Shown here piece after piece: positions 15,129-63,289 of a stretch of DNA of 64,000 nucleotides. The position numbers were made by a program, and so were the translations under genes. Location of the stretch: positions 15,525,197 to 15,589,196 of the forward strand of contig NC_081356.1 in assembly GCF_030684315.1 (NCBI RefSeq), read 5' to 3'. Each line of letters starts with the position of its first letter. The first letter of the stretch is position 1. This stretch comes from Stegostoma tigrinum. Its lineage: Eukaryota. The notes beneath the pieces are model-generated. The model saw only the letters and a program-made list of their open reading frames with translations. It did not search any database and was not told where the DNA came from.

Positions 15129-15158
15129 CTGAAGAAGGGTCTAGACCTGAAACGTCAG
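15129..15158 (+). ncRNA. Minimal hammerhead ribozyme motif in a short Penelope terminal fragment (15127-15208)
   Basis: CTGAAGA-A-GGGT(CTAG)ACCT-GAAA-CG-TC/AG. Core intact, stem I weak. Confidence 0.65.
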
Positions 15159-15742
15159 CTTTCCTGCTCGGTCTGCTGTGTTCATCCAGCTCTACATCTG
15201 GTTATCTCTGAACAAAGTCTGGTGTGATCTGGACAGAGTAAATGATAGAGAAAGGAGGAGACCAGTAAAACCTGCTCTACCATTTCACATGATCATGGCT
15301 GATCAAACACTTCAATGCCTTTTACTCACTATCCCCCTAATTCTTCAAACCAATAATGAAAAATTAACCAACCAGCAATTCAAATATACTCAAGAACTGA
15401 GCTTCCTCAGCCCTCTGGGATGGAAACTGGGATAATTCTTTCCAGTTGGCAGACAAAACAAAAACCAGACGACACCAGTGTAACGTGAATAGCAAAAAGA
15501 ATCAATGGCAACTGGAGAAAATCCTTTCGAAGATAAGCATTTAGGATCTGGAATTCATGATCTGAGCACGCAGTGGAGGTGTATTCAAACAAAACCTTTG
15601 TAAGTGAACTGGACAACAGGAAGTCGCAGGGAGTGGGATCAGGTTAGTTACTCTCAGACTCAACACAAATACAATAGATCAAATGGCTTCTAATGTGCAT
15701 TCATTTCATGATTCTACTTGCATTAGAAGACAAATTCCTTAC

Positions 15743-15978
15743 CTGGTTAATGATATACACTCCATAATCCAGTTGCTGGCGCTGAAGAATTGGATGCAAG
15801 TAATACAACCAATATTTCAAATGCTCAAATCGATTGCGAAAAGGAATAATGATGGCAACTTTCTGAAGAGCTGTACAGTCTATTGGAGCAAATCTGCCTC
15901 CTTCCCTTAACAATGGATTAGTATTTTTCACATCTTCTAGATCAACAGTCTGAGAAAATTCTATTGAAAGTGGTCCCA
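15743..15978 (-). CDS. B4GALT1: B4GALT1(-like) coding exon 2 (236 bp)
   Basis: Reads (M)GPLSIEFSQTVDLEDVKNTNPLLREGGRFAPIDCTALQKVAIIIPFRNRFEHLKYWLYYLHPILQRQQLDYGVYIINQ. Acceptor ttttctctgcag, donor GTAAGG. Phase 1 in and phase 0 out, compatible with exons 1 and 3. Confidence 0.95.
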
Positions 15979-16347
15979 CTGCAGAGAAAACAAAATTCCA
16001 GAATCAGCTCAAAAAGAATATGAACTGCTCAAAGGGGCTTTGAACAGCTTTGAAGCTGAGCCAGTGATAAAATGACTGGCATACTGGTACTTTCAATGAT
16101 CAGTAGCTAGGACTTAAGGGAGATTTTCCTTTCAGCTAGGGAACCCCTACATGTCACTCAGGTGAAGTTTAGCTAAATACAGCAGAATTCATAGAATCAA
16201 GTTAGGAAATCACATCCTGACGTAAAATTATATCCTCCAAACACACAGCTCCTTCATCAGTTCCAGCCTGAAAGAGCATAACCTATCCCAAGACTCAGTT
16301 GGTATCACATGTGCCAGCACCAAAAAATGATGAGCCCCTAACACTTA

Positions 16348-16585
16348 AAAACCAAAAGGACTGCAGATCTGTAAATCAGGAACAAAGACAGAAGTTGCTG
16401 AAAGCTCTGCACGTCTGGCAGCATCTATTAAGAAAAAAAAAAATCACAGTTAAAGTTTTAGGTCTGTGACTCTTCCTCAGAATGGAGGAAGAGTCACCAC
16501 ACCAGAAATGTTAACTGATTTTTTTTTCCTTCACTGATGCTGCCACAGATGTTGAGCTTCCAGCAACTTCTGTCTTTGTCCCTGA
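16348..16585. mobile_element. Penelope-derived fold-back element, second family
   Basis: Inverted arms around GTGACTCTTCCTC-agaatg-GAGGAAGAGTCAC. Flanking AACACTTA on both sides. Confidence 0.8.
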
Positions 16586-16677
16586 CAACACTTACTACAG
16601 TTCAGAAAACTGTTGCACAAACAAATAAATGGTCAACTTTTCAGATCAGGTTCTTCAGCTATGAGCCATTAAATGAG

Positions 16678-16972
16678 GGGCAGCACGGTGGCTCAGTGGT
16701 TAGCACCACAGCCTCACAGCGCCAGGGACCCAGGTTTGATTCCAGATTTGGGTAACTATCTGTGCGGAGTTTGCACATTCTCCCCGTGTCTGCATGGGTT
16801 TCCTCCCACAGTCCAAAGATGTGCAGGCTGGGCAAATCGACATGCTAAATTGCCCACAGTGTTCAGGGTTGTGTGGGTTATAGGGGGATGGGTCTGAGTG
16901 GGATGCTCCAAGGGGCAGTGTGGACTTGTTGGGCCGAAGGGCCTGTTCCCACACTGTAGGGAATCTAATCTA
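16678..16972 (+). mobile_element. tRNA-derived SINE (HE1/V-SINE type)
   Basis: Same head, central domain and tail as the 14186 copy. Confidence 0.9.
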
Positions 16973-17349
16973 AATGAAATCCCTCCTATTTTCACATGAA
17001 ATTGAATTAAATTCTGTGCCACTATTTCAAAAAGAAAAAAGGGGCAAAGGTAAATGCACGAAGTTTTACGGCAGATTTGACTGTTTCAGCAATGAAATAG
17101 TAAACACAAATGGCAACCAGATTTTTAAAAAATAAACAGAACTCTGTTGTGGTCAATTGGTGATTGGAGAAAACAGTAATCCACTCTTTTAATCATCGCC
17201 TGACATTAATATTTATTTCTTGCTGTTTTCTCTAATTTAAGCATTAGCCTTCACAGACAGGTTTTTTAAAAGTTTTGTTTTTTCATTCGTTCATCTTTCC
17301 TCACTGCAAACCATGCAAAATAAATTGCATGAGTTGAAACAGAAAGTTT

Positions 17350-20140: not shown

Positions 20141-20159
20141 AGTTCATAAGGCACAGGAG

Positions 20160-21600: not shown

Positions 21601-21989
21601 CGTGTATGTAGCTTGTCCTGAGGAAAGCTTGCTAAGCAGAAATCCCTTCCAAATAATAGCTATATGCAGGATATGTTCCCAACCAGTAATTTTTACATTA
21701 TAAACCTGCTGACAGCCTTAAATCAAAGCAACTCCAAAACTCACTTCCTGTTAGCCACTTAAGTATCCCAGGCTCCCCTTTCTGCCAATTCTACTCCTCA
21801 ACCTGCACTGTTCTACCCATTTCCTACTCAACTTTCACATAGGGGCAAGCAATGAGCTGGGGAGGCTGAGAGGCAGCAAAGGAAAACAATTGCACATTCT
21901 GAAATCAGAAATTGCTGAGAAACTCAGCGGGTCTGGAAGTATCAGGGAGAAAGTGGTGTTAGTGTTGAGTCCAGTGACCCTTTTTCAGA

Positions 21990-24155
21990 GATAGTGGGAA
22001 CTGCAGATGCTGGAGAATCGGACATAAGGTGTAGAGCTGCATGAACATTGCAGGCCAAGCAACATCAGAGGAGCAGGAAGGCTGACATTTCAGGCCCAGA
22101 CCCTCCTTCAGAAACGGGAGAGCGAAAGTGGGTTCTGAAATAAATAGGGAGAGAGGGGGAGGCAGATAGAGGAGAATATAGGTGGAGAGGAGACAAACAG
22201 ATCAAAGGGGCAGGGATGGAGTTAGTGAAGGTGAGTGTAGGTGGGGAGGTAGGGAGGAGACAGGTCAATCCAGGGAGGACGGACAGTTCAAGGGCGTGGG
22301 TTGAGGTTAGTAGGTAGAAGATGGGAGTGGGGCTTGAGGTGGGAGGATGGGATAGGTGGGAGGAAGGATGGTTAGGAAGGTTGCGGGGGGGGGGGGGGGG
22401 AGAGAGAAGAAGAGGAGAGATGAGCGGGGTTGGTTTTGGGATGCAGTGGGGGAAGGGGAGATTTTGAAGCTTGTGAAGTGCACATTGATATCATTGGGCT
22501 GCAGGGTTCCCAAGCGGAATACGAGTTGCTGTTCCTGCAACACCCCACTGACATCCTCATCCACTTAGCCGAACTCGTCCTCACCCTCAACAACTTCTCT
22601 TTTAATTCCTCCCACTTCCTACAGACAAAGGGTGCGGCCACAGGTATCCGCATAGGCCCAAACTATGCTTGCCTCTTTGTAGGTTACGTGGAACAATTCC
22701 TCTTCTGTACCTACACTGGCGTTAAACCCCACCTCTTCCTCCATTACATTGATGACTGTATCGGCACTGCCTTGTGCTCCCATGAGGAGCTCAAACAGTT
22801 CATCTACATCACTCCAACCCAACCTTAAGTTCACCTGGACCATCTCTAATACCTCTTTCTCCTTCCTGGGCCTCTGTCTCCATCTCTGGCAACCACCTAG
22901 AAACCGACATACATTTCAAGCCCACCCACTCCCACAGTTACCTAGAACACACCTCCCCCCACCAAACTTCCTGCAAAAATGCCATCCCCTATTTGCAATT
23001 CCTTTGCCTCCATCACGTCTGCTTCCAGATGAGGCATTCCACTCCCACACATCTTAGATGTCTTCGTTTTGAGGATGTAACTCACCCCCCACCTCAGTAG
23101 TCGAGAAAGCCTTCGACTGTGTCTCCTGCATTTCCCACAACTCATCACTCACACCCCCTCCCCGTAATAACAACCAAAACAGAATCCCCCTCATCCTCAC
23201 GTACCACCGTATCACCCCAACAACCTCGGGATCCAACACGTCATCCTCCGACACTTCCACCATCTGCAATCCAACACTACCAAAGACATTTTACCCTCGC
23301 TACCCTTATCTGCTTTCCGGAGGGACCAGTCTCTCCAGGACTTCCTTGTCCGCTCCACACTCCCCTCCAGCCCCATCAGACCTGGCACTTTTCACTGCAA
23401 CTGCAGGAAGTGCTACATCTGCCCCTACACCACCACCCCCCACCTCACCCCCATCCCAGACCCAAGACTTTCCACATCAAGCAGATGTTCACCTGTACGT
23501 CTGCTAATGTGGTATTCTGCATCCGCTGCTCCCATTGTGGCCTCTTCTACATTGTGGAAACCAAGCGGAGGCTTGGGGACCGCTTTGCAGACCACCTACA
23601 TTCAGTTCACAACACAAAACAGAATCTCCCAGTTGCAAACCATTTCAACTCCCCCTCCCATTCCTCAGACGACATGTCCATCCTGGGCCTCCTGCACTGC
23701 CACAATGATGCCACCCAAAGGTTGCACGAACAGCAACTCATATTCCGCTTGAGAACCCTGCAGCCCGATGGTATCAATGTCGACTTCGCAAGCTTCAAAA
23801 TCAACCCCCCGACCGCATCCCAAAACCAGCACAGCTTGTTCCCGCCTCCCTAACCTGTCCTTCCTCCCACCTATCCCCTCCTCCTATCTCAACCCCCATC
23901 TCCTACCAACTAACCTCATCCCACCCCCTTGACCTATCTCCTCCCTACCTACACTCACTTTTACTGACTTCATCCCCGCCTCTTTGATCTATCTGTCTCC
24001 TCTCCTCCTATCTTCTCCTCTATCCATCTTCCTCCCCCTCTCTCCACAATTCAGAACCCCCTTCCCCTCCCCCATTTCTGAAGAAGGGTCTAGGCTCAAA
24101 AACATTGCCTTCCTGCTCCTCTGATGTTGCTTGGCCTGCTGCGTTCATCCGGCCG
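21990..24155 (+). mobile_element. Penelope-like element (RT plus GIY-YIG remnants) with an inverted copy of its 3' end and a 14-bp TSD
   Basis: RT remnant QTKGAATG..GPNYACLF..LHYIDD and GIY-YIG remnant FTCTSANVVFCIRCSHCGLFYIVETKRRLGDRFADH. 21990-22541 is the reverse complement of the 3' part. GACCCTTTTTCAGA occurs at 21976-21989 and 24156-24169. Confidence 0.9.
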
Positions 24156-25469: not shown

Positions 25470-26260
25470 AGCTGCGTTATTCGGTTCTTTCCCTCGGGGG
25501 GTCGACAAATAAGAAGAGGCGGCTCGCGGAAATAAATAGAAAATTAAACAGCAACCGTCCACCCCCTCCCCTCGAGGCCGCTTACTCAGATGCGGTGAAG
25601 TGTCCGGACACGGCTGCAACGGCAGGCGAGGGGGAGACGGGGACTCGACGCTGCCATTGGCGTTTGTGGTGTTGGGGACCGGGCCCGCCGCTGTGCCGAT
25701 CCCGTCCGCCACCAGGAAGCTGCCGAAGCGCCGCACCATCTGCCCGCTGTAGACGTGTATGTCCAGGTAGTAGAGCAGAGTGACGGCGAGGTGAATCCCG
25801 CTCAGCACCATCACCGCCAGGCACGTCACGTGGAGCCCACGGCCCGGCATCACCGAGCTCAGCGCCATGCTTTGCCAAGCACCACCACCGTCCGCGTACT
25901 GGCGGCTCCGCTCCCCGTCGGGGAAGCCTCCAACGACGGCTCGGAAGCCAACCCGGAGGAGGGGGGGGGGGGGGTTGGGCCCGCGAGATAAACCAATCAG
26001 AGACGGACCACGTGCCGGGTGGGTTCGCCAAACCAATCAGAGCCGCGCCAGCTCGGGAAGCCTATCAGAACCGGGATGGTTTGGTTGAGGGGGGGGGTTC
26101 GCCAATCAGAGCTAGGCCTTTTCGGAATACCGGGCCATTCAGGTCCTTCGGACTAGAGCCAATCAGAACCTGCTATCTTCGAACATTAGCCAATCAGAAC
26201 CGGGTCCGCTGGTAGAGAAAATTGGTGCGGTGTTCGTGGGAAGGCTGACCGGATCTGAAA
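25470..26260 (-). promoter_or_regulatory. CpG-island promoter of B4GALT1(-like) with clustered CCAAT boxes
   Basis: High CpG density against a CpG-poor background. CCAATCAG starts at 25993, 26033, 26102, 26159 and 26190, with a variant CCTATCAG at 26061. E-box CACGTG at 26009-26014. Confidence 0.75.
25586..25868 (-). CDS. B4GALT1: B4GALT1(-like) coding exon 1 (cytoplasmic tail, type II transmembrane anchor, stem)
   Basis: Reads MALSSVMPGRGLHVTCLAVMVLSGIHLAVTLLYYLD...PLQPCPDTSPHL. The hydrophobic anchor with H-L-x-V-T-L-x-Y-Y-L resembles the B4GALT1 TM segment. Donor GTAAGC at 25585, phase 1. Lies in a CpG-rich island. Confidence 0.9.
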
Positions 26261-26264
26261 CTTT

Positions 26265-26417
26265 TGAGATAATAAAGTGTGAAGCTGGATGAACACAGCA
26301 GGCCAAGCAACACAACGTCAGCTTTTGTGCTCCTGAGATGCTGCTTGGCCTGCTGTGTTCATCCAGCTCACACTTTATTATCTTGGATTCTCCAGCATCT
26401 GCAGTTCCCGTTATCTC
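26265..26417. mobile_element. Penelope-derived fold-back element nested in an older terminal fragment of a second family (~26232-26530)
   Basis: Inverted arms GATAATAAAGTGTGA...GGCCAAGCA / TGCTTGGCC...CACACTTTATTATC. Confidence 0.85.
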
Positions 26418-26918
26418 GGAAACACTTAACTCTGATTTCTCTCCTGAAATGATGCCAGGCCTACTGAGCTTTTCCAACGACTTCTTTTCACGTTCCTGAT
26501 TTCCAGTAGCTATAGTTCTTTCAATTTTTTTTTAAATGGAGCATGGTTCTATCGTGAAAGATCCAATATTCGAGACGTCTGGAAAACTGACCAACTAACC
26601 AATCAATGTCACCCCTAGGAAAATGCAACAGTAGCCCCATTGAGGGACAAGGGGAACCAGACTGGCCCATAATCCTCAGAGTGTGAACCAGTCAGAAGAG
26701 CAGTGGCATTTAAAAATTCTTTCATGTAGTGTGAACATCAGGCTAGGCCAGCATTGACTGCTCATCCCTCATTGTCTTTGAGAAGGCAGTGATTGTATTT
26801 TTGAAGCAGTCCTCAGGGTGTTGATCGATCCACAGGACTATTGCAGAGGGTGTTGCAGGATTTCAATCCATGTGCCCTCAAGAGCTATCACTTGTGACCA
26901 GGAACACATCGTTTTTAG

Positions 26919-27107
26919 AAACAGTAGGAACTGCCGATGCTGGAGAATCTCAGACAACGAAATGTAGAGCTGGATGAACACAGCAAGCCAAACAGCATCA
27001 GAGGAACAGGAAAGCTGATGTTTCCGGTCTAGACCCGAAAGTCAGCTTTCCTGCTCTTCTGATGCTGCTTGGCCGGCTGTGTTCATTCAGCTCTACACCT
27101 TGATGTC
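26919..27107. mobile_element. Penelope-derived fold-back element
   Basis: Arms joined at GGTCTAGACC. Flanking ACACATCGTTTTTAG (26904-26918) and ACACATCATTTTTAG (27108-27122). Confidence 0.88.
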
Positions 27108-28945
27108 ACACATCATTTTTAGTTCCTTGACCATCAAATCAAGTCCCATTGGAGTTACATATTCAGGCACTATAATAAATCATTTTTGTAGTGTTAAGCA
27201 TAAGCCTGACAAAGACACCTACAGGAACCCCAACATTAAACTACCAATTGAAAACCATTTGATCACAGTGACCAGAGACTGAGGTAGAAGACAAGCTGCA
27301 CATTTGACTCTGGGAATAATGGATTCCCTTCCTCAATATTTTGGTGCGGTATAGGTGCTACAACAGGCTGCTCCAGCTGGACCAACGTAGGGATAACCTT
27401 GTTCTCACTGACTTGCTATGTAGACAGTGCCTCAGTCGAAAGGGTGATAACAGCAGCCAACAATCAAAATACCCATGAGAGGTGGCCAGCTTCAGGACTT
27501 TTCATGTCAAATTATGCCAATTTGAATGAACCAGTAGTGGTAAGGCAGATACTTATACTAAAATCCATGCATCTGTTTTGTTTTTGAAATGTTAGATTCC
27601 ACAATAGCTCCTGCAGATTAGAAGGTAACAAATGTAACTCCCCTATTTAAGAAGGGAGAGACATTATTACATTGGTAAGTGGGGAAAATGCTACAATCTA
27701 AGATGTGATAACTCATCATATAAGAATAATTGTAGGATGGGGCAGAATCAACATGGATTTATGAAATAAAAATCATGTTTGACAAACTTTTTAGAGCTCT
27801 GAGGCTGTAATTAGCAGAATAGATAAGGACCATCAGTGGATGTAGAATGTCCCACTCAAGAGGTTCGTAAACAAATCTGGAACAAATGAGTTTGGAGGTA
27901 ATATTTCTAGCATCAGTTGTGAATTGGTTAATAGATAGTTACCTGGTTATTCTCAGGTTGACAGGCTGTGGCAAAGAGATGCCACCAAAAGAAAAAGGAG
28001 TTTTGTAGTCGTAGTTAGGAATTACTTCACCTGTAGAGCTTTAGTAAAGCCGTAACTGGCAAGTTATGGTACCAAGTGAATCAGTTTTATAATTGAGTTA
28101 GGGTAACTAAAGGGATGGACCTCCGGTCATCGACATTCATGCTCTCAAAGTCTACAAAAATATTATAATTTCAGTACACATTAAAAACATACAGAAATAC
28201 AAGATATTTAAGATGCATAGAACACAAGTCACAATTATCAATAAGATGAGTACAATTCTTCAAAGTATATTTCAGCAGCTTTACTAGACACACTGATTTA
28301 ACACTTTTCATAAATGTACTGAGAACGATGTCAACAAAAGAAAACAATTCACCAATTGTAAAGACAAGTAGAATGTACAAGCTTCAGTTTTCTGATTTGA
28401 TACTGATCTTTTGCGTAAAAATATGAACACAGTAAAAGGTCAAGTATAATACAGCATGCAACACTGAAACCAAATTTATAACATAGCACTAAAATCTTAC
28501 TGTACACACAAGCACCACTTGTGTAGACTGAAAACACAAAAGGCAGCAAATACTTTGATTTTAAAAGAAAATAAATCCCTTTTGTTAGTTCATAAAAGCT
28601 TTACGTCAAAGCTTACAAAGTAACAAATCAAACAGTTGTTTCCTCTCAAAAATATTTCCTACAAAGTTGCAATTGATTTTGTCACTTTTTTGATATGGTT
28701 ATTAATGTTGCACCAGTAGGGATTGCAAAGTCAAACCATGTCCTGATGTGGAAATAATATTTAGGCTAACAAAGAAGGATACAGTCACTTACAAATGCAC
28801 ACTTGTGCAGACTATCAAATGTCAGTGGAAAATGTAACAAATCAGCGTATCTGGTGTTGGACAGTAGTTGATATTATCGCAGTCTTTTTTTGGATGAAGT
28901 CTAGTTGTGAACATTCTCCCTCCAGCAAATGTTGGCATGTGTATC

Positions 28946-29062: not shown

Positions 29063-30788
29063 CTGAAATTATATTAAAGAAATAACAGTTTAAAAATAAA
29101 TACTTTGGCACATCTGTAACCAATAACATCTGAGCTTGATACAACACTGGTTTAAGGACGTATAATATTCAATATAATCTTATAATTTTTGTACTGGAAT
29201 CCTGTCTGTGACTTGACATAGAATACATCAAAGTATTAAGACGTCATTCACATTTAACAATCATATTTTCCATCTGATGTAAACTCTATTGACATGATGG
29301 GTGGATAGAGTAATGGTTATCCTCCCAGAAGTGTGTGTGAAGGGCAGCAGATTCCTGGCGACAGTCTCGAACATGCAGACCATGGCCCAATAAACACCCA
29401 TGCTATTATACCATAATGGTGGTCTAGTTGATGCAGCCATTTCAATTTTAGACATATGTAAAAAGCAGTGAAAGGGCAAGTCCCACTTGCACCTCTCTTG
29501 CCCTACCTGTATCAGAAAAGGACACCATTCAGCTTCAAAAGGCTGCTCACAGCCCTTAATTGGATGGTATGTTTGCACACTGGCCATAAATGTGTCATTT
29601 CATTGACAGTTTTGATGGATGACTACGCACAGCAGTGCAGGATTCAGGCATGAATCTGATTACATCATCAGGGTCCTGGTGGCAAAACAAACTTCCAGCC
29701 CTACAGGAATAATCTTTCATCAGGACTATAAAAATTTGATAATGGACCATCAGCAGTGAGAGAAAGAAGCATTTCCACCCTGAAGGCTAGGATTAATTGT
29801 TGTAAAATTTCATTTGCAAGATGTTGCTTATTTGCATAAAACAAGCAACATCCACCTACAAAGTTGTGCATTGTGTGTTAACATTATTGGCAAATCTTTC
29901 AATCTTGCAGTCATAGCACAATCCAGATGGTTTAAACATTTACAAAAATAGCTATTCAAATTACATTTTGTACTGACAAATGCAAATGACTACACATTGT
30001 CCAAAACAATTTGGAGATACATGTACAACAGGTTAGAATTAGAACAAGATGATTCAAAAAACACAATGGTTAATTTTAAACTAGGTTAGGTTAATGTCCA
30101 AGGACAGTAATGAAGGAATTAAGATTATATATAAGACAGGGATATAGAAAGAAGATTTGCACTATCAAACTAATAGACAGATCTTAAAACTGCATTAGAC
30201 AACAGAGTGTATAAATTTGGTCACGATTCTACCAGGAGTACATAAATGTTAGAAAAACAGCAAGATGTTTCAAGTTGTGAACTCCATCTGTTTAGTACTG
30301 CAAGACGATGGTGAAACAGGGCAAATGTGTTCCTTATTTTTAAATAATATATTAAAATTCTTAGGCTTGGATGCACTTCCTGACAATGTATTGAAAGTAT
30401 ATGCTGTATGCAAATGTGTCATACTTCAGAGGTCCTACATCCTGTTCGGTATTAAGTTTAAAAACTTGCTCTAGAATTTCCTTTAGGCATAGATTCACTT
30501 AAGTAAATATTCTCAACATATTGAAGGATACGTCTGCACTGTCCAATGGCTAATACTTTAACTTCGAGGCAGTAAGAAAGGTATCACACCCTACTTATTT
30601 TAAAAAAGCGTTAATAAAAAATAAAAAAAACTAAATTATCCAATGGAAGTATACATTGGATCATTGAAACAAGGGTTAGGTAAATTTTATTTGTAATCTT
30701 TTTTAAGTGTCAGCTTTTTAAATGTGAATGTGCAGTCAGCAAATGTTATTGCATCATTGTTGTCAAAAAAAACATTTTATATTCAGGG

Positions 30789-30966
30789 ATAATGGGAACT
30801 GCAGATGCTGGAGATTCCAAGATAATAAAATGTGAGGCTGGATGAACACAGCAGGCCAAGCAGCATCTCAGGAGCACAAAAGCTGACGTTTCGGGCCCGA
30901 AACGTCAGCTTTTGTGCTCCTGAGATGCTGCTTGGCCTGCTGTGTTCATCCAGCCTCACATTTTAT
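30789..30966. mobile_element. Penelope-derived fold-back element containing a perfect 142-bp palindrome
   Basis: 30825-30966 is its own reverse complement (centre TCGGG|CCCGA). Direct repeat ACATTTTATATTCAGGG at 30772-30788 and 30958-30974. Confidence 0.92.
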
Positions 30967-32350: not shown

Positions 32351-33029
32351 ATCTTAAACTCTCTTCCACCATCTTCTGTCAGGCAGAACATATAAAAGTT
32401 TGAATACATGAACAAACAGATTCAAGAGCATCATCTTCCCCGCTGTCATCAGACTTTTGAACTGAGCTCTCAAATGTTAATTCTGATCTCTCTCTCTCTG
32501 CAGCTGTTACACTATTTTGCACTCTGTTCTGCTACCTTGATGCACTTTGTATGGTATGGTGTGCTCGTATAGCATGCAAAACAAAACAGAGTTAATACTT
32601 CAAGTTTGTGACCTTTCATCAGAACTGGGAAAATTTACAGCAGTAATTGACTTTGAACCAGGAAAAGAGACGAGGGTTGGAAGAACAAAAAATATTGTCT
32701 ATGTTTTGTTGGAGGGCAACATAAGTTAAATTACAAGAGATTTCATGCTACAAGATGCAGGGGCGTGGGAAAGGGAAACGTAAAGAAACAAAATGCGTAT
32801 CAACAACTGGTGTAAATGTCACAATAGAAAGCACAAACTAGGAAAAAAATCACTGTTATGCTGCTGATAGATCTTCCTTTCTCATGACACAAATATTCTT
32901 GCCCATCACGGTTGACAGAGTCCTTAACTACATCCATTTCATTTTGTGTACTTATGCTCCTCACCTCCTTCGGAGACTGTTCTGCCAAAAAGACAAGTTC
33001 AAAACTTCTTGGAGGTATCCACAATTGAA

Positions 33030-49719: not shown

Positions 49720-51390
49720 TAGTTAGGAAGGGATGTACCCAAGATACTCAATGAAGCAAGGGTGGACATTGAGGCTTTGGCAACAACCTCCCAATTTGCC
49801 TTGGACACGAGTAACCCCAGGGAATGAAGGATTGCTAGTACTTCTGTTCCCACTTTTGAACAGTGGAAGAAATAAATCAGGCAGTGTTGTCAACAGTATG
49901 AAAACTTCTACAGATCATAATCCAAGACAATATTAATATCACTTGATTAATAAATGATAGTCAATACAGATTTTTTAGTGGGAAATCATCTCTGACAAAC
50001 TTTATTTAATATTCTCATTGCAATTACTGAGAGGTGATGAAGGTGATATAATTAACGTTGTATGTATAGGTTACCGAAACTGATTGATAGCGTGCATAAT
50101 GGACATACAAAAACTGAAGCTGATACAATCAGCAGGGCAGCAAAGACACAAGAGTAGCACCAAGAAAAACAAATTATAAGTGACTGATTATTTTTCACAG
50201 TAGTGTCCTCAGCAGTCAGTATTAGAATCACTGCTATTCATCATGTGTATTAGCAACCTAGACTCAAGGATATAAAGCATAGCTTCAAGCATTACAGATA
50301 GCACAAAGCTCAGAAATGCAGTCATATATATTATAGAGGAGAGCAGTAAACTGAAAGAAGACCTACGCACACTGTGACGTAGGAAGGTGCATCACAGATG
50401 AAATGCACCCTATGGAGTGTGAAGTGATGATAAATTTTGGATAATAAATTTGATGAGCACATTATAAATAAATAAAATTAAAGAGGTTAACATTGTTTCA
50501 GAGATAGTAGGAACTGCAGATGCTGGAGAACCTGAGATAGCAAAGTGTAGAGCTGGATGAACACAGCAGGCCAAGCTGCATCAGAGGAGCAGGAAAGCTG
50601 ACATTTCGGGCCTAGACCCTTCTTCAGAAAATTTTCTGAAGAAGGGTCTAGGCCTGATACTTCAGCCTTCCTGCTCCTCTGATGCTGCTTGGCCTGCTGT
50701 GTTCATCCAGCTCTACACCTTGCCATCTTAAAAGAGGTACATGATCAGAGCGTCCTGGAGATGTGAGTAGATAAATCTTTAAAAATTGAAGTTTTAAAAA
50801 GCATATTAGTTGCTTTGCTGTAGATAAGGAAGCACAAAAGAAAGATAGATATACTCAACATTTGAAAAAATCATTAGGTTTTAGCAAGACAATTGTATCC
50901 AATTTTGGGCACCCACTCTTTAGAAAGGACATCAATACCAGGCTGTTGGTACAGAGAAAGTTTATCAGAATAATATCAAGCATGATGAATGTCAGTTACA
51001 TAGAAAGACTGAAGGAACTGGGATTATCTGCCCTAAAGTAGGAAAGGTTAATGGGAGATTTAATAGTTGTGCTTAAAATTATGAAGGTTTTTAATAAGAT
51101 CAGATGGAAAGAAATTGTTTCGATTGGCACAAGAGTTGGATGATCGATTTAAAATAATTAACAAAAATAAGAATGGAGATACAAAATGCCAGTGAGTTAC
51201 AATAATCTGTGATGCACTGCCTGAAAGGATGATGGTGGCAGATTCAATCAGAATTTTCAAAAGGGCATTGGATTTCTGTTTTTAAAAAAAGTACTGTATC
51301 ATGGAAATGAGCTACTAATAGTAGCTTCTCCAAAAAGCTTATAAAGGCAAGAAGGCCAAATAGCTTCCTTTTGTGCTGCATAGTCCCATG
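49720..51390 (+). mobile_element. Old decayed CR1 LINE containing a Penelope fold-back insertion
   Basis: Scattered RT-like remnants (gtgtcctcagcagtcagtattag; gtatccaattttgggcaccc; ggagatttaatag). Confidence 0.55.
50499..50728. mobile_element. Penelope-derived fold-back element with a hammerhead motif in each arm
   Basis: Inverted arms centred on CAGAAAA|TTTTCTG (50631/50632). Decayed flanking duplication TAAAGAGGT / AAAAGAGGT. Confidence 0.88.
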
Positions 51391-54214: not shown

Positions 54215-54440
54215 TAATTGCTGCTTGGGAAAAAAAAAACCTGGAGACTCTCAGAAGGGCTGGCAATGCCTGTGAAAAGAAAAAGGCAGAGCTAACATTT
54301 CAAGTCCAATATGATCCAGAAATTCCAATGAAGTCATCTGGACTCAAAACATTAACTTTGTTTCTCCCTCCACAAGAGACTGCCAGACATGTTGAGGTGT
54401 TCCAGCAATTTCCATTTTTATTTCAGGTTTCCTGCATTCA
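54215..54440. mobile_element. Old Penelope-derived fold-back element just downstream of LEPROTL1 exon 2
   Basis: Degenerate inverted arms (ctcag..gctggca / tgccagac..gag) with gactcaaaacattaac. Confidence 0.55.
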
Positions 54441-54465: not shown

Positions 54466-54541
54466 TTGTACTCTGGAAGGGCACAACCAAGCATCAGGAA
54501 CATCAGTCCAATGGCTCCACCGAATGATAGGCTGATCAACG
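54466..54541 (-). CDS. LEPROTL1: LEPROTL1 coding exon 2 (76 bp)
   Basis: Reads ALISLSFGGAIGLMFLMLGCALPEY(N). Acceptor ttttccag, donor GTAAAT. Phases fit exons 1 and 3. Confidence 0.95.
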
Positions 54542-55180: not shown

Positions 55181-55249
55181 TTCAGATGAAACGCAATATG
55201 GGTGTTAGTATTTATTACCTTTTGTTGCTGGTGAGCTGCCTCCTTGAAC

Positions 55250-55280
55250 CTGAAGAAGGAGTGAGCCTCTGAAAGCTTGT
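55250..55280 (+). ncRNA. Minimal hammerhead motif of a third Penelope family (fragment ~55245-55345)
   Basis: CTGAAGA-A-GGAG(TGAGC)CTCT-GAAA-GC-TT/GT, with an AGCT palindrome. Confidence 0.55.
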
Positions 55281-56979
55281 GTTTTCAAACAAACCTGTTG
55301 GACTATAAACCTGGTGCCATGTGACTTCTGACCTTGTCCACCACAGGCCCAGCACCAGCCCCTCCACTTTTTGAACCACTGCCGTCCATTTTCTGCACTT
55401 AGGTCTGGGGGGGGGGGGAAAGTGACATATTTCCAAGCCAGGATGGTGTGCACCTTGGAGGGGAACTTGCAGGTGGTGGTGCTCCCATGTAACTGCTGCC
55501 CTTCTCCTTCTACTTGGGAACCAAAAGAACGGCAGATGCTGTGAATCAGAAACAGAAACTGAAGTTGCTGGAAAAGCTCAGCGGATGTGGCAGTATCTGA
55601 GAAGTAAAATCAGAGTTAATGTTTCGGGTCTGGCGACACTTCCTCAGAACTTGCAGCATGGTTTAGTACATGCTGTCCAAGAGCCCTGGGGAAATACAAT
55701 ACTTGCATCTTGTAAATGGTAAGGTGCTGCTCTCTTACAAGAGAGATGATTCAGAGGTGATTTTTAAACTGAGGTTCGCCATACCTTGGACAATTGAGAA
55801 GATGGGACCTTCATGGTAATCTCAGCTGGCATAGGAATTAAACCCCTATTGTTGGCATCACTCTGCATCTCAAAGTAGTTATCCAACCAACTGAACTAAG
55901 CAGACAGCAAAGGTCATCACTATATTCCCACAGGCCCATAAGGCTGCTAGCTCATGAAAGAGAGACAATGGAAAGTGATTTGAATCACCATGCCTCAGGC
56001 AAAGAATGAAGTTGATAAGGCAGAACCTTCATGATGGTGCACACTACTCCTGAGCATTGGTGGTGGAGAGAGTGAATTTTTATGGATACGGTCCCAATCA
56101 AGTGATTTGCCTTGTATGATGTCAAGCTTCTAGTGTTGCTGAAGCTGCAAATATCTGGGCAAGTGGGAAGTATTCCATCATACTCCTTCCTTGATGAGCT
56201 TTGGGACTAAGGAAATGGGTTAGCTATGCAGTATTACTAGACTTTGATCTGTCATTGTAGCCACAATGTTTATTTTGCTGGTCTGGGCCAATGTTAAACT
56301 CTAGGATGGTAATACCTCTGAATACCAAATAAAGTTGGTTGGATTCTCTCTAGTTAGAGAAAGTAATTGCCTTGTGCTTGTAAGGTGTGAATGTTACTTA
56401 CCACTTACAAGCCTGAACCTCGATGTGGCCCAGGTCTTGTTGCATTTGGTCATATGCTATTCTAGTATCTAAGAAGATAAGTGTGATGATGTACATTGTG
56501 CAATCTTCAGTGTAAACAGTCAATTTTGATATAAAGGCAGGACAGTTGATGATGGAGCTGAGGATGATTGAACCTAGGATACTATCTTGAGCGATTAAGG
56601 GCTGTTGTGGCACAGTGGTAATGTCTTGCCTTTAAACCAGAAGGAGTGGGTTCAAGTTCCACCTGGTCCAGAAGTGTGCAATAACATCTGTGATCAGGTT
56701 AATTATAAAATATATACCTTTAGAATATCCCTGCATTAGTGGCTTGGGGCTACAATGATTGACCTCAAACATCCACAGATTCTTCCTTTGTGCTGTGGTT
56801 AAGTCCAACCAGTGAAAGTCTTTTCAACCTGATTCGGATTGACTCCAGTTTTGCTCGGGCTGCCATACACCGTCCTTGGTCAAATGCTGGCTTGATGTCA
56901 GGGGCAGTAACTCTGGATATTAGCAGTTTTGTCCATGTTTGGACCAGGAGTTAAATGATAGTAGCAAAATACAAAAGCA

Positions 56980-57192
56980 TCACGAACCATTTCAATTCTT
57001 TCTCCCGTTCCTCAGATGACATGTCCATTCTGGGCCTCCTGCAGTGCCACAACAATGCCACCCGAAGGTTGCAGGAACAGCAACTCACATTCCGCTTGGG
57101 AACCCTGCAGCCCAATGGTATCAGTGTGGACTTCAAAATCTCCCATCCCCGTACTGCATCCCAAAACCAGCCCAGCACATCCCCGCCTCCGT
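56980..57192 (+). mobile_element. Penelope-like 3' ORF fragment, inverted relative to 57393-58352
   Basis: NHFNS...DDMSILGLLQCHNNATRRLQEQQLTFRLGTLQPNG is shared with the adjacent minus-strand copy. Confidence 0.85.
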
Positions 57193-57392
57193 AGCATCGA
57201 TACGCAGGATATTGCCGAACAATTATTGCCTGATAGCACAATCTTGCAATCATATTAATGTTAATTGTTTTAATACAATTGTCTGATAGGGATATTCAAT
57301 TTTAGTGTTGTATTTGTGATTCGACTTCATGTAGCTTATTAAATTTGGCATAACCTTTTGCATATAAGAGCCTTATTTAAATTGCTCAGGAG

Positions 57393-58352
57393 ACTGGGCT
57401 GGTTTTGGAATGCAGTACGGGGATGGGAGATTTTGAAGCTTGTGAGGTCCACATTGATACCATTGGGCTGCAGGGTTCCCAAGCGGAATGTGAGTTGCTG
57501 TTCCTGCAACCTTCTGGTGGCATTGTTGTGGCATTGCAGGAGGCCCAGAATGGACATGTCATCTGAGGAATGGGAGGAGGAGTTGAAATGGTTCGTGACT
57601 AGGAGATGCACATGTTTAGTGCGAACCGAGCGTAGGTGTTCTCTGCTTGGTTTCCCCGATGTAGATGAGGCCACAACGAGAACAGCGGAAGCAATATACC
57701 ACATTAGCAGATGTGCAGATGACCATTTGCTTGATGTGGAAACTCTTATAGGGGCCTGGGATGGGGGGGGAACTGGGGACGTGTAGGGGCAGATGTAGCA
57801 CTTCCTGCGGTTGCAGTGAAAAAGTGCTGGGTGTGGTGGGGCTGGAAGGGAGTGTGGAGTGGACGGGGAGTCACGGAAAGAGTGGTCCCTCTGGAAAGCA
57901 GATAAGGATGGGGAGGGAAAAATGTCTCTGGTGTTGGGCTGGATTGCAGACGGCGAAAGTGTTGGAGGATGATGCGTTGGATCCGGAGGTTGGTGGGGTA
58001 GTACGTGAGGACGAGGAGATTCTGTTTTAGTTGTTATTGCAGGGAGGGGGTGTGAGGGATGAGTTGTGAGAAATGCGGGAGACATGGTCGAGGGCATTCG
58101 CGACGACTGAGGGGGGCAAGTTGTGGTCCTTGAAGAACAAGGCATCTGAGATGTACGGGAGTGGAATGCCTCATCCTGGGAGCAGACGCAGTGGAGGCGA
58201 AGGAATTGGGAATAGGGGATGGCATTTTTGCAGGAAGGTGGGTGGGAGGAGGCATATTCTAGGTAGCAGTGGGAGTTGGTGGGCTTGAATTGGATATCGG
58301 TTCCTAAGTGGCTGCCAGAGATGGAAACAGAGAGGTCCAGGAAGGAGAGAGG
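57393..58352 (-). mobile_element. Penelope-like element fragment (RT C-terminus plus GIY-YIG)
   Basis: Reads LSFLDLSV...HPPSCKNAIPYSQFLRL and CTSANVVYCFRCSRCGLIYIGETK. Same family as 22541-24155. Confidence 0.88.
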
Positions 58353-58944
58353 ACTAGGAATAGGCAATAAAAGACCTCTTCTACCAATGGCAACAAATAA
58401 TTTAATATCTGTAAGTTATCTCTCCTGACCTTTGAGTTCCAACAGTGCACAAATTCTTCTCTCCCTGAACTTTGCATCTGAGTTCTCCTATATTTTCACT
58501 TTCCCTTCCTACATAAGGTCACACCTTCGTCTGCCTGGGTCTCAATCTGAATTTCTCTCTTTACACCCCTCTACCTTGATGAGGAACATAGAACATTGAA
58601 CAGTCCAGCACAGTACAGGCCCTTCGGCCCACGATGTTGTGTCAAACATTTACCATAATCCTAAAGTCTATCTAACCTCTATCTCTACCTTATACTAACA
58701 TGCATATGCCGATCTAGGAGCTGCTTAAATGCCCTAATGAGGCCGACTCCACTACCCTCTCTGGCAATGCATTCCATGCCCTAACCACTCGCTCCAATAG
58801 CTTTTGGATCTTCTAAATATTTAAATCAATCAGTCAATGAATAAAGTTTGGCAATATGGATAAATAAACATAATCTAAATGATGCAATACCTAGGTCTGA
58901 TGTAATGTTTTTGAACCCTTAAGCAAATCATACAAAAACCAGAA

Positions 58945-60167
58945 ACAAAAACAAAGTTGCTGGAAAAGCTCAGCAGGTCTGGCAGCACCTGTGAAGGAGA
59001 AAACAGAGTTAACGTTTCAGGTCCGGTGACCCTTCCTCAGAACTGGTGGTGGCTGGGAAGAGGTCAGTTTATATGCCGAAAATAGGGAAGTGGGTGGGGT
59101 AGGGAGTAAACGTTAGGATAGAGCCCAAAGAAAGAGAAAGACAGTTGGACAGACAAAGGAGTTACTAATGATCAGGCTGGGAGGGTGAATAGTTGTTAAT
59201 GGGGACTGTTAGTGACTAACAACTGGGGGTGTGTAATGGCAGGCTGTGTGGTAACAAGACCTGGTGTGTGGGGTGGAGGGCAAGGACATGGGAGAGTTTA
59301 GGCCCTAAAATTATTGAACTCAATAATTTGAGTCTGGAGGGCTGTAGGGTCCCCAAGCGGAAGTTGAGGTGTTGCTCCTCCAGCTTGCACTGGGCTTCAC
59401 TGGAACACTAGAAAGCCGGAGACAGAGATGTTGGCCAGGGAGCAAAGTTGTGCATTGAAGTGGCAGGCAATGGGTAGTTCAGGGACTTATGGCAAGCAGA
59501 ATGTAGATGTTCTGCAAAGCGGTCACCAAGTCTATGCTTCGCTTCCCCAGTGTAGAGGACCATGTTGTGAGCAGCGAATGCAGTAGACTAGATTCTGGGA
59601 AGTGCAGGACCTGGAAGGTATGTTTGGGCCCTTGAATATTGGGTAGGGAGGAGCTAAATGGGCAGGTGTTGCACCTTCGCTGGTTACATGGGAAGGTGCT
59701 GTAGGGCTGTGGGGAGGTGTTGGGGTTGAAGGAAATATGGACCAGGGTGTCCCAGAGGGAATGGTCCCTGCGGAAGGCGGACAAGGGAGGTGAGGGTTGG
59801 AGGTGGCGGAAATGGAATCTGATGATCTCCTGCACGTGGATGCTGGTGGGACGGTCAGTAAGGATAAGGGGAACCCTATCGCTGTTGCAGTTGGGAAGAG
59901 AAGGGGTGAGAGTGGAAGTGCGGGAGATGGGTCGGATCCAGTTGAGGGCCCTGTTGACAACAGAGCTAGAGAAACCTCAGTTCAGGAAGAAAGTGGACAT
60001 TTTCCCTTGTCAAAGTTAGCCTCATCTGAACATATGTGATGGAGATGATGGAACTGAGAGAGTGGGATGGAGTCTTTGCAGGAAGTGGGATATGAGGATG
60101 TATAGTCCAGGTGGCTGTGGGAGTCGGTGGGTTTCCTGATTTACAGCATCGGCAGTTCTTTTGTTTT
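58945..60167 (-). mobile_element. Penelope-like element of a second family with an inverted terminal piece and a 15-bp TSD
   Basis: GIY-YIG-like remnant CTSQNLVYCIRCSQ. ATACAAAAACCAGAA occurs at 58930-58944 and 60168-60182. Confidence 0.85.
59007..59044 (-). ncRNA. Minimal hammerhead ribozyme motif in a Penelope terminal repeat
   Basis: AGTT-CTGAGGA-A-GGGTC(ACCG)GACCT-GAAA-CG-TT/AACT: intact core, 4-bp stem I, 5-bp stem II, ACGT palindrome in place of stem III. Confidence 0.75.
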
Positions 60168-60724
60168 ATACAAAAACCAGAATTTTGCATTTTTTAAATC
60201 TCCTGCATGAATCTATTCCAAGAGAGATTACTTAACAGAATATACTTCACCATTATCTAAAGAAAGAAGAACGTTCAGCAAACAGTGTCCCGATCAGTAT
60301 AAGGTCTCTATGGTTGTGCCTACTTAGCTGTCTGCTCAATCCCCTAAACCACAAGTTATCAGACTCCCTATCAATGTACAATGTAAATGCCTTCCTGCTG
60401 TAACTTGGCTGCCTCTGTCTCTCTCTTAGCTTAGATGCTGCAATCTGTTGGCAGCCAGCAATAAAAAGGGTTAGGGGGTTGGGTAGATGGAGTGGGTGTG
60501 GGTTGGAGGTGTTAGGGAGTTGGGTTGGGGGGGGCATCTGGGTAGGTGGGATGAGGGTTGGTTGGGTTTGGAGCTATGGATGGATGGGAATAGGGGTGGG
60601 GGTGGGTTGGGATGTGGCTAGGTGGGAATGGGGGTGAGGTTGGGTTTGGTGTGTGGGTGGGTGGGTTTGGTGTGTGGGTGGGTGGGAGTGAGGATGGGGT
60701 TGGGCTTCGGGCTACGGATGGGAA

Positions 60725-61215
60725 TGGGGTGGGGTTGGTTTTGGGGTATGGGGAGGTGGGAATGAGGGTGGGGTTGGGTTTGGGGTGTGGGTAGGTGAGT
60801 GTGAGGGTGAGGTTGGGCTGTGGGGAGGTGGGAGTGAGGGTGGGGTTGGGTTTGGGCTGTGGGTAGGTGGGAGTGAGGGTGGGGTTGGGTTTGGGCTGTG
60901 GGGAGGTGGGAGTGAGGGTGGGGTTGGGTTTTGGGGTGTGGGTAGGTGAGAGTGAGGGTGAGGTTGGGCTTTGGGGTGTGGGGAGGTGGGAGTGAGGGTG
61001 GGGTTGGGTTTGGGCTGTGGGGAGGTGGGAGTGAGGGTGGGGTTGGGTTTGGGCTGTGGGGAGGTGGGAGTGAGGGTGGGGTTGGGTTTGGGCTGTGGGG
61101 AGGTGGGAGTGAGGGTGGGGTTGGGTTTGGGCTGTGGGGAGGTGGGAGTGAGGGTGGGGTTGGGTTTGGGCTGTGGGGAGGTGGGAGTGAGGGTGGGGTT
61201 GGGTTTGGGGCTATG
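60725..61215 (+). repeat. G-rich 39-bp minisatellite (about 12 units, degenerate toward ~60470)
   Basis: Unit GGAGGTGGGAGTGAGGGTGGGGTTGGGTTTGGGCTGTGG, near-perfect from ~60980 to 61208. Shows up as 13-aa repeats in the ORF track. Confidence 0.93.
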
Positions 61216-61279
61216 GGTGAATGGGAATGGAGGTGGGGTTGGGGTGGTGTCAGTGGGTGGGTCTAAGATTGGGGTCAAA

Positions 61280-61430
61280 CTCCGGGCAGAGAAATGGGCG
61301 CGGCCTATCCCTGATGACGTCGACAGGGTGCCGCGCGGTAATGACGTAGTTACGCGTCATTGCATTGTGCTGTTGACCGCAGGATTGCGCATGCGTTCCC
61401 CTGGGCTGGGGTTTTCGTTAGAGGAGGAGG
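61280..61430 (+). promoter_or_regulatory. SARAF proximal promoter with CRE-like and NRF1-like sites
   Basis: TGACGTCG at 61315-61322, inverted pair ATGACG...CGTCAT at 61341-61360, TGCGCATGCGT at 61386-61396. CpG-rich. Confidence 0.65.
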
Positions 61431-61533
61431 ATGTCACTATTTCATAAGTACCGCCTTGGCGTAGGCCTCGGCTTTTGCTGGTACCTGTGCTTGCTGCCGT
61501 CTTTGCTGCATGTGAACGGAGCACAGGATTCAG
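61431..61533 (+). CDS. SARAF: SARAF (TMEM66) coding exon 1, signal peptide (103 bp)
   Basis: Reads MSLFHKYRLGVGLGFCWYLCLLPSLLHVNGAQDS, resembling a signal peptide. Donor CAG|GTAGGA, phase 1, joins exon 2 in frame. Confidence 0.82.
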
Positions 61534-62527
61534 GTAGGATCCGGAGACAGGTATTCTCATTGCTTCGCCGATGCAGTCCCGTAGCTGTATATAGAGGTCT
61601 TCACTCCCAATATGGCAGGGTACATGACCTGTCATCACCAGTCATGGGTCTGCAACCGCCACTTAATATCCTTAAATAGTGGAAATCAATAAAGTGTGAC
61701 ATTGTTCTCGGCCAATATTTGCCGCGAGAGAGTCATGGATCTCCACTGCCCTTTATAAAAAGATCCCCGAGTTCTGCCAATTAAGAATGTCGACCTCAGT
61801 GAGATGGGAATGTGACTCGATGATCATAACAGCAAAGTAAATGCACTCTGGGGATCTGAAATAAAATTTCTGTTTTAATAAAATGGTGTATGGGATAAGC
61901 CATGGCCAGCATATCAGAGAGAGCTTTCTTGCTTATCAAAATGATGCTGTGGGTCCTCCTGACGTGAGGGAGCAGGTAGCATTTCAGTTAAAATCTGACC
62001 TGATAGTAGTCCTGCAATCCATAAACCACCTGATGCAGAAGCAAGAGTGTTACCAATTGAAGCAATGCAATTAATTGCCAAGTGATTAGTAATTGATTTC
62101 TGTTGCATTAGTGCTCATGCTGTCTGGAGTAGTTTTCCCCAAAGGGCTCACTAAATGGCTTTTTACCCCAAAGCTGTCACAAAATGGCTTTAAATTTGCC
62201 AGCATACATGCTGAGTTGCTCTTACTCAGTCATCAAGGGCTTGCTGAGGCTGAGACACTCCATTCTTCCCCATTAACAACTAATGTTATAATCAACTAGA
62301 TATATGTGTATTGTCCTATGTTCACATGTGTCTAATATATATGACTTATTTTGGTCATTATTTTCACTATATTTGCACTATTCCTTTCCACTTAACTTGC
62401 CTGCTGAAACCTCTGCCAATCATCCCTCAAGTCTGAAATTAAATGAAGATGGTTCGATAAGATGAATCAATAACTTTTCCGTGAACTAGCTGGTAAGACT
62501 TTGTGTAATGTCTCTTTTTGTTTACAG

Positions 62528-62706
62528 AGAGAATTCTCCTCCGGGAAGTCCAAGCTTTGACATTGTACAGTGAGAAGTATACTACTGGCCGCAGAACACA
62601 TCCTGTTCCTCAGCTGCGGTGTGTTGGTGGCTCAGCTGGCTGTAATGTCTTCCTTCCGAAAGTGGTGCAGTGTTATAACAAAGGGTGGGATGGTTATGAC
62701 GTTCAG
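62528..62706 (+). CDS. SARAF: SARAF coding exon 2 (179 bp); gene continues beyond the right edge
   Basis: Reads (E)RILLREVQALTLYSEKYTTGRRTHPVPQLRCVGGSAGCNVFLPKVVQCYNKGWDGYDVQ, recognisable as the SARAF luminal domain. Acceptor tttgtttacag, donor GTATGT. Confidence 0.95.
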
Positions 62707-62870
62707 GTATGTAGTTGAATATTCTGAGGTCTGATTTCGAAATATACCTGGGTGATATTGAATTAGTTTACACTGAAGGCTGCTGTCTGGAAGCAGCAGC
62801 CACTGTTGGTGGAGTTTAACATTGGAGATGATTCCTATGCAAATTCTCAATCTTGGAACATACAATTTTA

Positions 62871-63289
62871 TGGATGTAAGTTTGCTCGCTGACGTTTCGT
62901 CACCATTATAGCTAACATTATCAGTGAGCCTCTGGTGAAGTGCTGGTGTTATGTCCCGCTTTCTATTTGTGTTTAGGTTTCCTTGGGTTGGTGATGTCAT
63001 TTCCTGTTCTTTTTCTCAGGGTGGTCGATGGGCTCCCAATCTGAGAAAAAGAACAGGAAATGGCATCGCCAACACAGGAAATGGCATCGCCAACACAGGA
63101 AATGGCATCACCAACCCAAGGAAACCTAAACACACAAATAGAAAGCGGGACATAACACCAGCGCTTCACTGGAGGCTCACTGATGTTACCTGGAATGGTG
63201 ATGAAACGTATGAAAATGAACCTTCCAGCTCAGCGAGCAAACTTACATCCAGACCCTCAACCTGAGCTACAAATCTTCTCAAAACTCGC
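62871..63289. mobile_element. Larger fold-back element (probable Penelope terminal repeat, distinct family) with a 16-bp TSD, in SARAF intron 2
   Basis: Arms of about 150 bp are inverted about ~63020-63040. CATACAATTTTATGGA at 62859-62874 and CATACAATTTTGTGGA at 63289-63304. Confidence 0.82.

Follow-up and report, generated by a model that had tools for sequence, protein, structure and literature searches.

Hammerhead ribozymes of four Penelope-like element families in Stegostoma tigrinum and a probable transcript start at the ribozyme

Hammerhead ribozymes (HHRs) of Penelope-like elements (PLEs), their palindromes, their solo and inverted copies and their large copy numbers have already been published. 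In the metazoan survey of Cervera and de la Pena (2014, PMC4209133), as far as its available text goes, these minimal HHRs have a type I core with an extra base after A9, a G10.1-C11.1 pair and a palindrome at 15.2-16.2, they lie in the pseudo-LTRs (pLTRs; LTR, long terminal repeat) of the elements, and most are solo or opposite-strand copies, with many families per genome. Here we analysed a stretch of 64,000 nucleotides of the shark Stegostoma tigrinum (contig NC_081356.1, positions 15,525,197 to 15,589,196; the window, to which all coordinates refer) together with the genome of 3.2 Gb. The dispersed motifs in this window are minimal type I hammerheads in the pLTRs of four PLE families, which we call A to D. 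They share the features of the survey, but stem I of the dominant family, at 2 bp, falls outside its 3-7-bp descriptor, and a transcription start at the HHR is not proposed in the text available to us. What is new here is a probable piece of mechanism, read from DNA: the transcript of these elements appears to start at the ribozyme. We found no prior report of a start at the HHR edge, of the junction-G signature described below or of shark PLE-HHR counts, in a search that left most subscription papers and all Repbase entries outside.

Several other systems offer a comparison, again as far as the available texts go. Neptune PLEs (Craig et al. 2021, PMC8557442) have in common with the elements here a reverse transcriptase (RT) with a C-terminal GIY-YIG endonuclease, a CX2-5CxxC linker, partial tandems, an inverted 5'-truncated partner, an optional tail of 30-40 bp and an HHR near the 3' end; that paper states that HHR function in PLEs is unclear, and the accessible part mentions no start-site class of short insertions. 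For the Anolis Poseidon element PAc (Frangieh et al. 2024, PMC11167929), which belongs to another clade than three of the four families here, the RT initiates internally at two tail sites, both DNA strands are cut and extended, the HHR cleaves only with the protein, uncut RNA is the main template, and no RNA-seq ends were reported at the cut. In PAc, for which the available text maps no start site, the HHR already contains the beginning of the open reading frame (ORF); in the elements here, HHR and tail are instead overlapped by two short upstream ORFs. In Drosophila virilis Penelope (PMC2377424) the promoter lies in the pLTR of the partial tandem, as we propose here, but it is internal and has no TATA box, and an exon of 46 nt and an intron of 75 nt precede the HHR region. 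In our families, by contrast, a TATA-like box lies upstream of the putative start. In the D. virilis paper no mechanism for pLTR regeneration was obvious. A putative TATA box and a TCACT initiator have already been noted in the pLTR of Adineta Pen2a (PMC3846280). Promoter and self-cleaving ribozyme likewise coincide at the RNA 5' end of the Trypanosoma retrotransposon L1Tc (Pr77/L1TcRz, PMC3383444), but L1TcRz is hepatitis delta virus (HDV)-like and cuts upstream of +1, leaving the element whole, whereas the HHR here would cut 32 nt inside the transcript and remove the cap. Finally, non-LTR retrozymes (bioRxiv 10.64898/2026.07.22.740005), with one chondrichthyan surveyed, are alike in being non-coding, pLTR-derived and HHR-bearing, but are defined as tandem arrays, whereas the copies here are solo or inverted.

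A first-pass annotation of the window had proposed a Penelope origin for about four families of motifs, and RT/endonuclease ORFs or their remnants upstream of the HHRs bear this out. With the endonuclease piece of the window as query, we retrieved long open frames of 617-791 aa that combine RT and GIY-YIG domains through a CX4CxxC linker, with the family B HHR 20-250 nt past the frame end. Pfam matches for the family B locus L067 (RVT_1, E 1.9e-6; GIY-YIG, E 0.0027) were both just under the curated cut-offs. The linker reads CNRRKCYTC in family B and CNQRRCNTC in family A, and is unreadable in the degraded family C copy. Within the window, ORF remnants lead into the motifs at 24078 (family B) and 59011 (family A); the family C HHR follows a degraded PLE ORF (L044), and upstream of family D copies (L043, L054) there is an endonuclease-like C-terminus, which we take to be of Poseidon type, with the zinc linker region out of view. 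Families A, B and C thus look Neptune-type and family D Poseidon-like, the Neptune assignment being based on linker and domain order rather than on an RT tree; the CX2-5CxxC linker marks the Neptune and Nematis clades alike, and in vertebrates Neptune and Poseidon are the only clades reported in the sources available. Partial tandems, an inverted truncated partner, the optional 30-40-bp tail and target-site duplications (TSDs) are all seen here, and the 3' ends of copies group around +64 and +100, counted from the cut, which corresponds to the known tail. In a partial tandem the 3' untranslated region (UTR) is followed by the TATA-like box, the start region and the HHR, then by about 100 nt with the tail at their end, and finally by the ORF. 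Full-length family B copies are 97-99.6% alike, indicating that this family has recently been active. In L090 and other full-length family B loci, the main ORF is preceded by the two short upstream ORFs across the HHR and the tail, and the first upstream-ORF AUG is A6-U7-G8 of the core itself.

As to structure, the boxes CUGANGA and GAAANNUH are present in the six exact cores of the window, and 95% of stem II cells are paired, in a stem of 3-7 bp with G10.1-C11.1 and the extra base after A9. Stem II reaches at least 4 bp in 43 of the 61 core matches found in a sample of 70 evenly picked 10-kb loci (700 kb in all). Stem I has 4 bp in family A and 3 bp in families C and D, in line with the published rule of at least 3 bp, and 2 bp in family B; the second of these two pairs varies among subfamilies (T-A, T-G, C-G) and, because pairing is kept, looks maintained. 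By published structural features families A, C and D are members of the class, and B appears to work alike outside the stem I rule. The first-pass annotation had listed six intact cores, all of which we recovered at the same positions and strands, except that the one at 55618 has a mismatch in the second stem II pair and falls outside the descriptor. It had also described a 4-nt palindrome in place of stem III. The tetramer, at 15.1-16.1, is ACGT in families A, B and D and AGCT in family C, but it survives in only three of the six intact copies (ACGT at 15129 and 59011, AGCT at 55250) and has become ATGT or ACAT in the others, a change of the CpG-decay type by its sequence.

The proposal that the stems vary and yet keep pairing held between families. 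In an alignment of 10 real copies, built like the covariance model below without family D rows, 83% of cells were paired against 70% after shuffling, and two-sided changes between families numbered 14 against 5.3, with 0 of 500 shuffles as high; slid registers paired in at most 49% of cells. On the other side, pair-count and pair-type measures, two of the five used, were not significant (59 and 88 of 500 shuffles), and the shuffles ignore the relatedness of the copies. A covariance model from the 10 copies found 12 window sites at E <0.001, four training copies included. A scan of the window with Rfam gave 16 matches up to E 10, none of them to a hammerhead family, and its miRNA matches are the palindromic insertions.

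A chance origin of the motifs is excluded. The core pattern CTGANGA-N-G..GAAA-NN-TH matched 294,280 times genome-wide against 3,597 for controls, six times in the window against a mean of 0.08 and a maximum of 2 in 300 dinucleotide shuffles, and 61 times against 0 in the 700-kb sample; a separate genome pattern gave 4,044 matches against 0 for controls, and a version of it with an extra N matched 62 indel variants. The very large genome-wide population predicted earlier was thus recovered, but its size depends on accepting a 2-bp stem I, since most genome matches come from family B. With the published descriptor (stem I of at least 3 bp) there were 8 matches in the sample, or about 37,000 genome-wide with a wide error, and with a 2-bp stem I permitted 48, or about 220,000. 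Compared like for like, the figure of about 37,000 stands against about 9,000 in Xenopus and about 4,000 in coelacanth in the available text of PMC4209133; a search of its supplement, which did not reach file 1, gave no shark entry. Two of the six window matches have a stem I of at least 3 bp, whereas those at 15129 and 50600 have 2 bp. Because the 2-bp variant is invisible to the published descriptor and not found by Rfam, the number of ribozymes in such genomes may have been underestimated several-fold. Family B by itself makes up about 6.5% of the sample (45,707 bases; L016-L065, L117-L136). Raw pattern counts are a few percent too high, because an RT stretch of a long interspersed nuclear element (LINE; L030, L051, L119), presumably of CR1 type, mimics the core pattern without the pairing in 3 of the first 100 genome matches and 3 of the 61 sample matches. 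One further exact core in the window, at 31582(+), had no repeat partner in the loci searched and looks like chance.

The availability of many thousands of insertion ends allowed us to assess where the copies begin. End positions are counted from the HHR cut site, -32 lying four bases before the core. Among 58 young family B copies, 20 have their 5' end at -33 to -26 and none at -40 to -34, and further upstream ends occur at 0.01-0.05 per base; copies of families A and C, too, have ends at the HHR edge. In the genome as a whole, the end falls precisely at -32 in 4,327 pattern matches. The base at this junction is G in 80 of the first 100 (hand count; 25.5% expected, p 6e-30) and in 31 of the 46 with host-looking flanks only (hand classification; p 3e-9), compared with 4 of 14 at host-flanked upstream truncations. 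At the control boundary -8, G was found in 34 of 100 against 40 expected; at +1 in 66 of 100, about 40 of them from one recurring inverted junction, the remainder comprising 26 G and 34 T; and at +8 in 48 of 100, 32 of them one junction. Family A copies ending at -4 from the core show the same preference (G in 15 of 22, p 3e-5).

Furthermore, a TATA-like box precedes this edge in three families; the first-pass annotation had mentioned neither the many starts at the ribozyme edge nor this spacing. The box lies 30 nt before -32 in family B, where 34 of 47 TATWWAW matches share one offset, and 29 nt before the A of CCAGTTC in all three long copies of family A. In family C, most of 21 matches have it some 31 nt upstream of a TCACT-like initiator. 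For LINE-1 and SVA, an untemplated G at full-length 5' ends has been taken as a sign of the cap (PMC4859970). Taken together, the peak of 5' ends, the junction G and the TATA-like box point to a capped transcript start at the ribozyme, as we infer it. The family B 5' end would then be the cap and a C followed by five pyrimidines, which resembles a terminal oligopyrimidine (TOP) mRNA.

Several observations weigh against this reading. In several of the 15 family A junctions with G, this base could come from an inverted arm, and a first tally found G in 17 of 32 junctions away from the start. When junctions were split by flank, the excess lay with element-derived flanks (G in 22 of 56) and with ends at -27 to -16 (five of five), all in small numbers. 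The edge class itself had G in only five of ten, and four of its T junctions belong to subfamilies whose sequence at this place is not that of the reference. Corrected for negated letters, the ends number about 9,000-12,000 at -32 against about 3,700 at +1 and about 4,700 at +8, an excess of only 2-3-fold. A target preference for G is possible, G usually being part of the TSD, and can be discounted only in part. Family D copies were not seen to end at the HHR. In folding calculations family B prefers a 6-bp CUGAUG/CGUCAG hairpin that hides the core (65% of the ensemble), and its dimer is less stable by 17 kcal/mol than a pair of monomers, so that family B may hardly cleave. Start site and cleavage are both putative here, all readings coming from DNA.

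The same hairpin offers another source for the 5'-edge peak, namely RT stalling or cDNA fold-back at CUGA/UCAG, with the G supplied by terminal-transferase activity or target preference. The 6-bp stem of family B would suit it, fold-back junctions at CTGA do exist (L045), and the G at ends from -27 to -16 is what it would allow. It sits poorly with families A and C, which end at the HHR edge although this hairpin is not their best fold, with the one-sidedness of a peak that has nothing at -40 to -34, and with the lack of a G excess at host-flanked upstream truncations, and it leaves a TATA-like box 29-31 nt upstream in three dissimilar 3' UTRs unexplained. We therefore regard stalling as an improbable account of the peak.

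A closer look at 20 G-start loci, chosen for unrelated-looking flanks, bears on whether the short copies are derived from the PLE transcript at all. All 20 are short (ending at +62 to +110) and several subfamily variants are represented; seven have clean TSDs ending in G, one carries a lone extra G, two have the G at the end of filler, and the rest show no clear TSD. One could suppose instead a separate non-autonomous element, similar to a retrozyme or to a short interspersed nuclear element (SINE), which would have a G-starting master of its own and be multiplied by the PLE protein, given that there are thousands of near-identical 95-140-nt insertions with TSDs and that short non-autonomous PLE derivatives have been published (bioRxiv 10.64898/2026.07.22.740005, in the text available). 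We think this very unlikely: the G mostly belongs to the TSD and not to the element, the G-start copies share the mixed subfamily variants of the long copies, the full-length ORF-bearing copy L085 starts like the short ones, and the copies do not form tandem arrays. Of the 61 intact motifs, only 2 have another intact motif on the same strand within 500 nt, which is not the head-to-tail arrangement of non-LTR retrozymes. With the paired copies of the window being head-to-head inversions, this rarity also makes it unlikely that the motifs cleave in place as dimers, dimer cleavage being the mode cited in the first-pass annotation. In the folding calculations for all four families, two monomers are more stable than the active dimer.

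Dimer action is part of the published model, put forward in the discussion of PMC4209133 as available, in which HHRs cut multimeric RNA and the units are ligated into circles that serve as main templates. A circle, having no 5' end, would give neither the -32 peak nor the G, and no spike of 5' ends was found at the cut site, simple ends at +1 being no commoner than at +8. Two observations lean towards circles. An HHR precedes an ORF anchor by 566 nt in 13 loci (12 distinct), of which only three start at the HHR edge and the rest read seamlessly upstream. In addition, among the first 50 of 1,542 palindromes with a short centre, this centre is the AGCT exactly at the cut in 27, ACGT in 2 and GGCC in about 8 (hand count); as a footprint of cleavage this is suggestive but confounded, AGCT also lying where the RT would meet the hairpin. 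We consider circles unlikely as the main templates, though they may lie behind a minority of insertions and long pLTRs. Because nine of the 12 distinct tandems read on upstream, a transcript start at the ribozyme needs to be complemented by a strand jump via the duplicated HHR region, by read-through transcripts or by circles, three possibilities that these data would not separate.

We consider it probable, as a whole, that the HHR is the first structure of the capped PLE mRNA, that short copies are tail-to-cap cDNAs and that they later decay neutrally. The TATA-like box and initiator upstream of the HHR would act as promoter, and transcription would start upstream of the core, by 4 nt in A and B and by about 8 nt in C, placing the HHR at the head of the mRNA. 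A copy beginning at this start has lost the box, which lies upstream of it. The RT/GIY-YIG protein would prime on nicked DNA and begin copying internally at the tail, as assumed from the anole element, for which internal initiation at the tail has been demonstrated in vitro (PMC11167929, as far as available). Copying from the 5' tail would reach the cap after 95-135 nt and yield an HHR-plus-tail insertion of 95-140 nt, a cap-derived extra C in the cDNA pairing with, or leaving, the G at the junction, while copying from the 3' tail would give ordinary 5'-truncated copies. Head-to-head palindromes may be two cDNAs joined at their 3' ends through short self-complementary ends, as at 50500-50728. 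Most inserted cDNAs would derive from RNA uncut at the HHR. The ribozyme itself would be maintained in master lineages, its likely job being the protein-assisted removal of the capped 5' 32 nt, and taking the cap from some transcripts could be a switch out of the translated state.

If this is true, the ribozyme occupies bases 5-32 of a capped mRNA and its cut removes the cap, and a start at this place would help to explain what the ribozyme is for. On a more general matter, about 10^5 insertion ends of a recently active family are enough to read the structure of an RNA template from DNA alone. A more detailed version, which we offer tentatively and would not ourselves favour, treats the pLTR like a retroviral LTR. 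In it, the 3' UTR with the TATA-like box would correspond to U3, and R would be the HHR stretch, which both ends of the RNA carry; a strong-stop-like cDNA, begun at the 5' tail and extended to the cap, would either integrate, giving tens of thousands of HHR-plus-tail insertions, or jump to the 3' HHR copy, be extended over the remainder and so rebuild the upstream promoter. The 3' HHR may make the RNA 3' end, the 5' HHR would be the decapping switch, and the HHR with a 2-bp stem I would be off until the protein of the element opens it. Were this LTR-like version true, the 2-bp-stem-I hammerhead would be the commonest ribozyme motif in this genome, with about 200,000 copies.

Once inserted, the copies decay neutrally and are not kept functional. 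In 84 family B cores, G12 is changed in 27% and the palindrome G in 25%, which is the CpG rate, and most non-CpG sites are changed in 0-7%. In the proposed mechanism such copies would be promoterless relics. That the host has co-opted dispersed copies as functional ribozymes in introns or transcripts might be suggested by the approximately 250,000 copies estimated genome-wide to keep core and stem II, and by several window copies lying in glycosyltransferase introns, but we give this hardly any credence: the catalytic G12 decays at the neutral rate, the monomers have no stem III, and same-strand partners are rare.

Within the window, the 13 motifs listed in the first-pass annotation are real, including all seven core-mutated ones near the positions given for them, but the list lacked 10877-10906(-), 16483-16512(+) and partial motifs near 26314, 27012-27042, 30880-30911 and 54278-54358. 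Paired motifs are single insertions, with head-to-head arms inside TSDs of 7-14 nt. Family B provides the short insertion at 15126..15208(+), which consists of the HHR 15129-15156 and a shortened tail; its first base lies 3 nt upstream of the core and follows the final G of an imperfect TSD. It also provides a single Neptune-type insertion at 21987..24154(+) with a 14-nt TSD, made up of an inverted 3' arm (21987-22541, -), an RT/endonuclease ORF remnant (22545-23850, +), 3' UTR and HHR; its arm carries the HHR 22084..22111(-), with A9 changed and a TATA-like TATTTAT at 22140-22146(-), and a degenerate HHR lies at the 3' end of the ORF remnant (24078..24106, +). Inverted pairs of this family, with arms on both strands, are found at 26265..26417, where the forward arm begins within the HHR, some 6 nt upstream of the cut, and at 26917..27110, joined within stem II and flanked by a 7-nt TSD. 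Two further family B insertions on both strands are palindromes: 30785..30966, with its centre GGCC in stem II and a 10-nt TSD, and 50500..50728, with an 8-nt TSD, an intact motif at 50600-50627(-) and a mutated one at 50636-50663(+), both arms ending 4 nt before the core and meeting at 50631/50632. A further family B ORF remnant with inverted arm, at 56985..58349, has retained no HHR.

Family-A-type copies comprise a degenerate short copy (10816..10908, -; motif 10877-10906), a head-to-head inverted pair at 16353..16585 with motifs 16452-16480(-) and 16483-16512(+) and an 8-nt TSD, the HHR of a short copy at 32594..32622(-) with a single core change (GAAG) and a 4-bp stem I, and a degenerate inverted pair on both strands that has lost its cores (54241..54430). 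The intact core at 34494..34524(+) follows its own inverted arm, so the stem I GCT/AGC assigned to it earlier is most likely an accident of the junction. A short family A insertion at 55522..55651(-) begins 4 nt before the core and holds the HHR 55618-55647 with its one stem II mismatch. The Neptune-type 3' part of family A at 58911..60134(-) has an ORF remnant (59300-60134), 3' UTR and tail, with TATAAA at 59068-59073, the initiator-like CCAGTTC at 59040-59046 and the HHR at 59011-59040 (4-bp stem I, 5-bp stem II). At 58985-59012(-) the family A cut site falls within a branch-point-like TTAAC followed by pyrimidines and CAG, resembling a 3' splice site, a stretch kept in neither family B nor C. 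Family C is represented by a 3' end at 55209..55380(+), with TATTTAT at 55209, the HHR 55250-55278 with its AGCT palindrome, and a tail, and family D by a Poseidon-like head-to-head pair on both strands at 62871..63290 with an 11-nt TSD, whose motifs 62891-62924(-) and 63180-63210(+) are both core-mutated.

Exons of a family 7 glycosyltransferase (B4GALT-like) were seen at 15715-15936 and about 25590-25870 (-); several PLE insertions lie within the intron between them, and the intact motif at 15129 is antisense to the gene. An exon of a Vps55-domain (LEPROT-like) gene lies at about 44945-45135 (-; Pfam). Other repeats include five copies of a tRNA-like SINE head (14195, 16687, 24227 and 31838 on the forward strand, 44485-44514 on the reverse), presumably of the shark HE1 type, and two LINE RT remnants, 83-84% alike and in our view CR1-like, at 3342-4381 and 41097-42251 (+). 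A 220-base run of N occupies 12168-12387, and a G-rich 39-nt minisatellite of about 18 units with GGG runs extends over 60519-61300.

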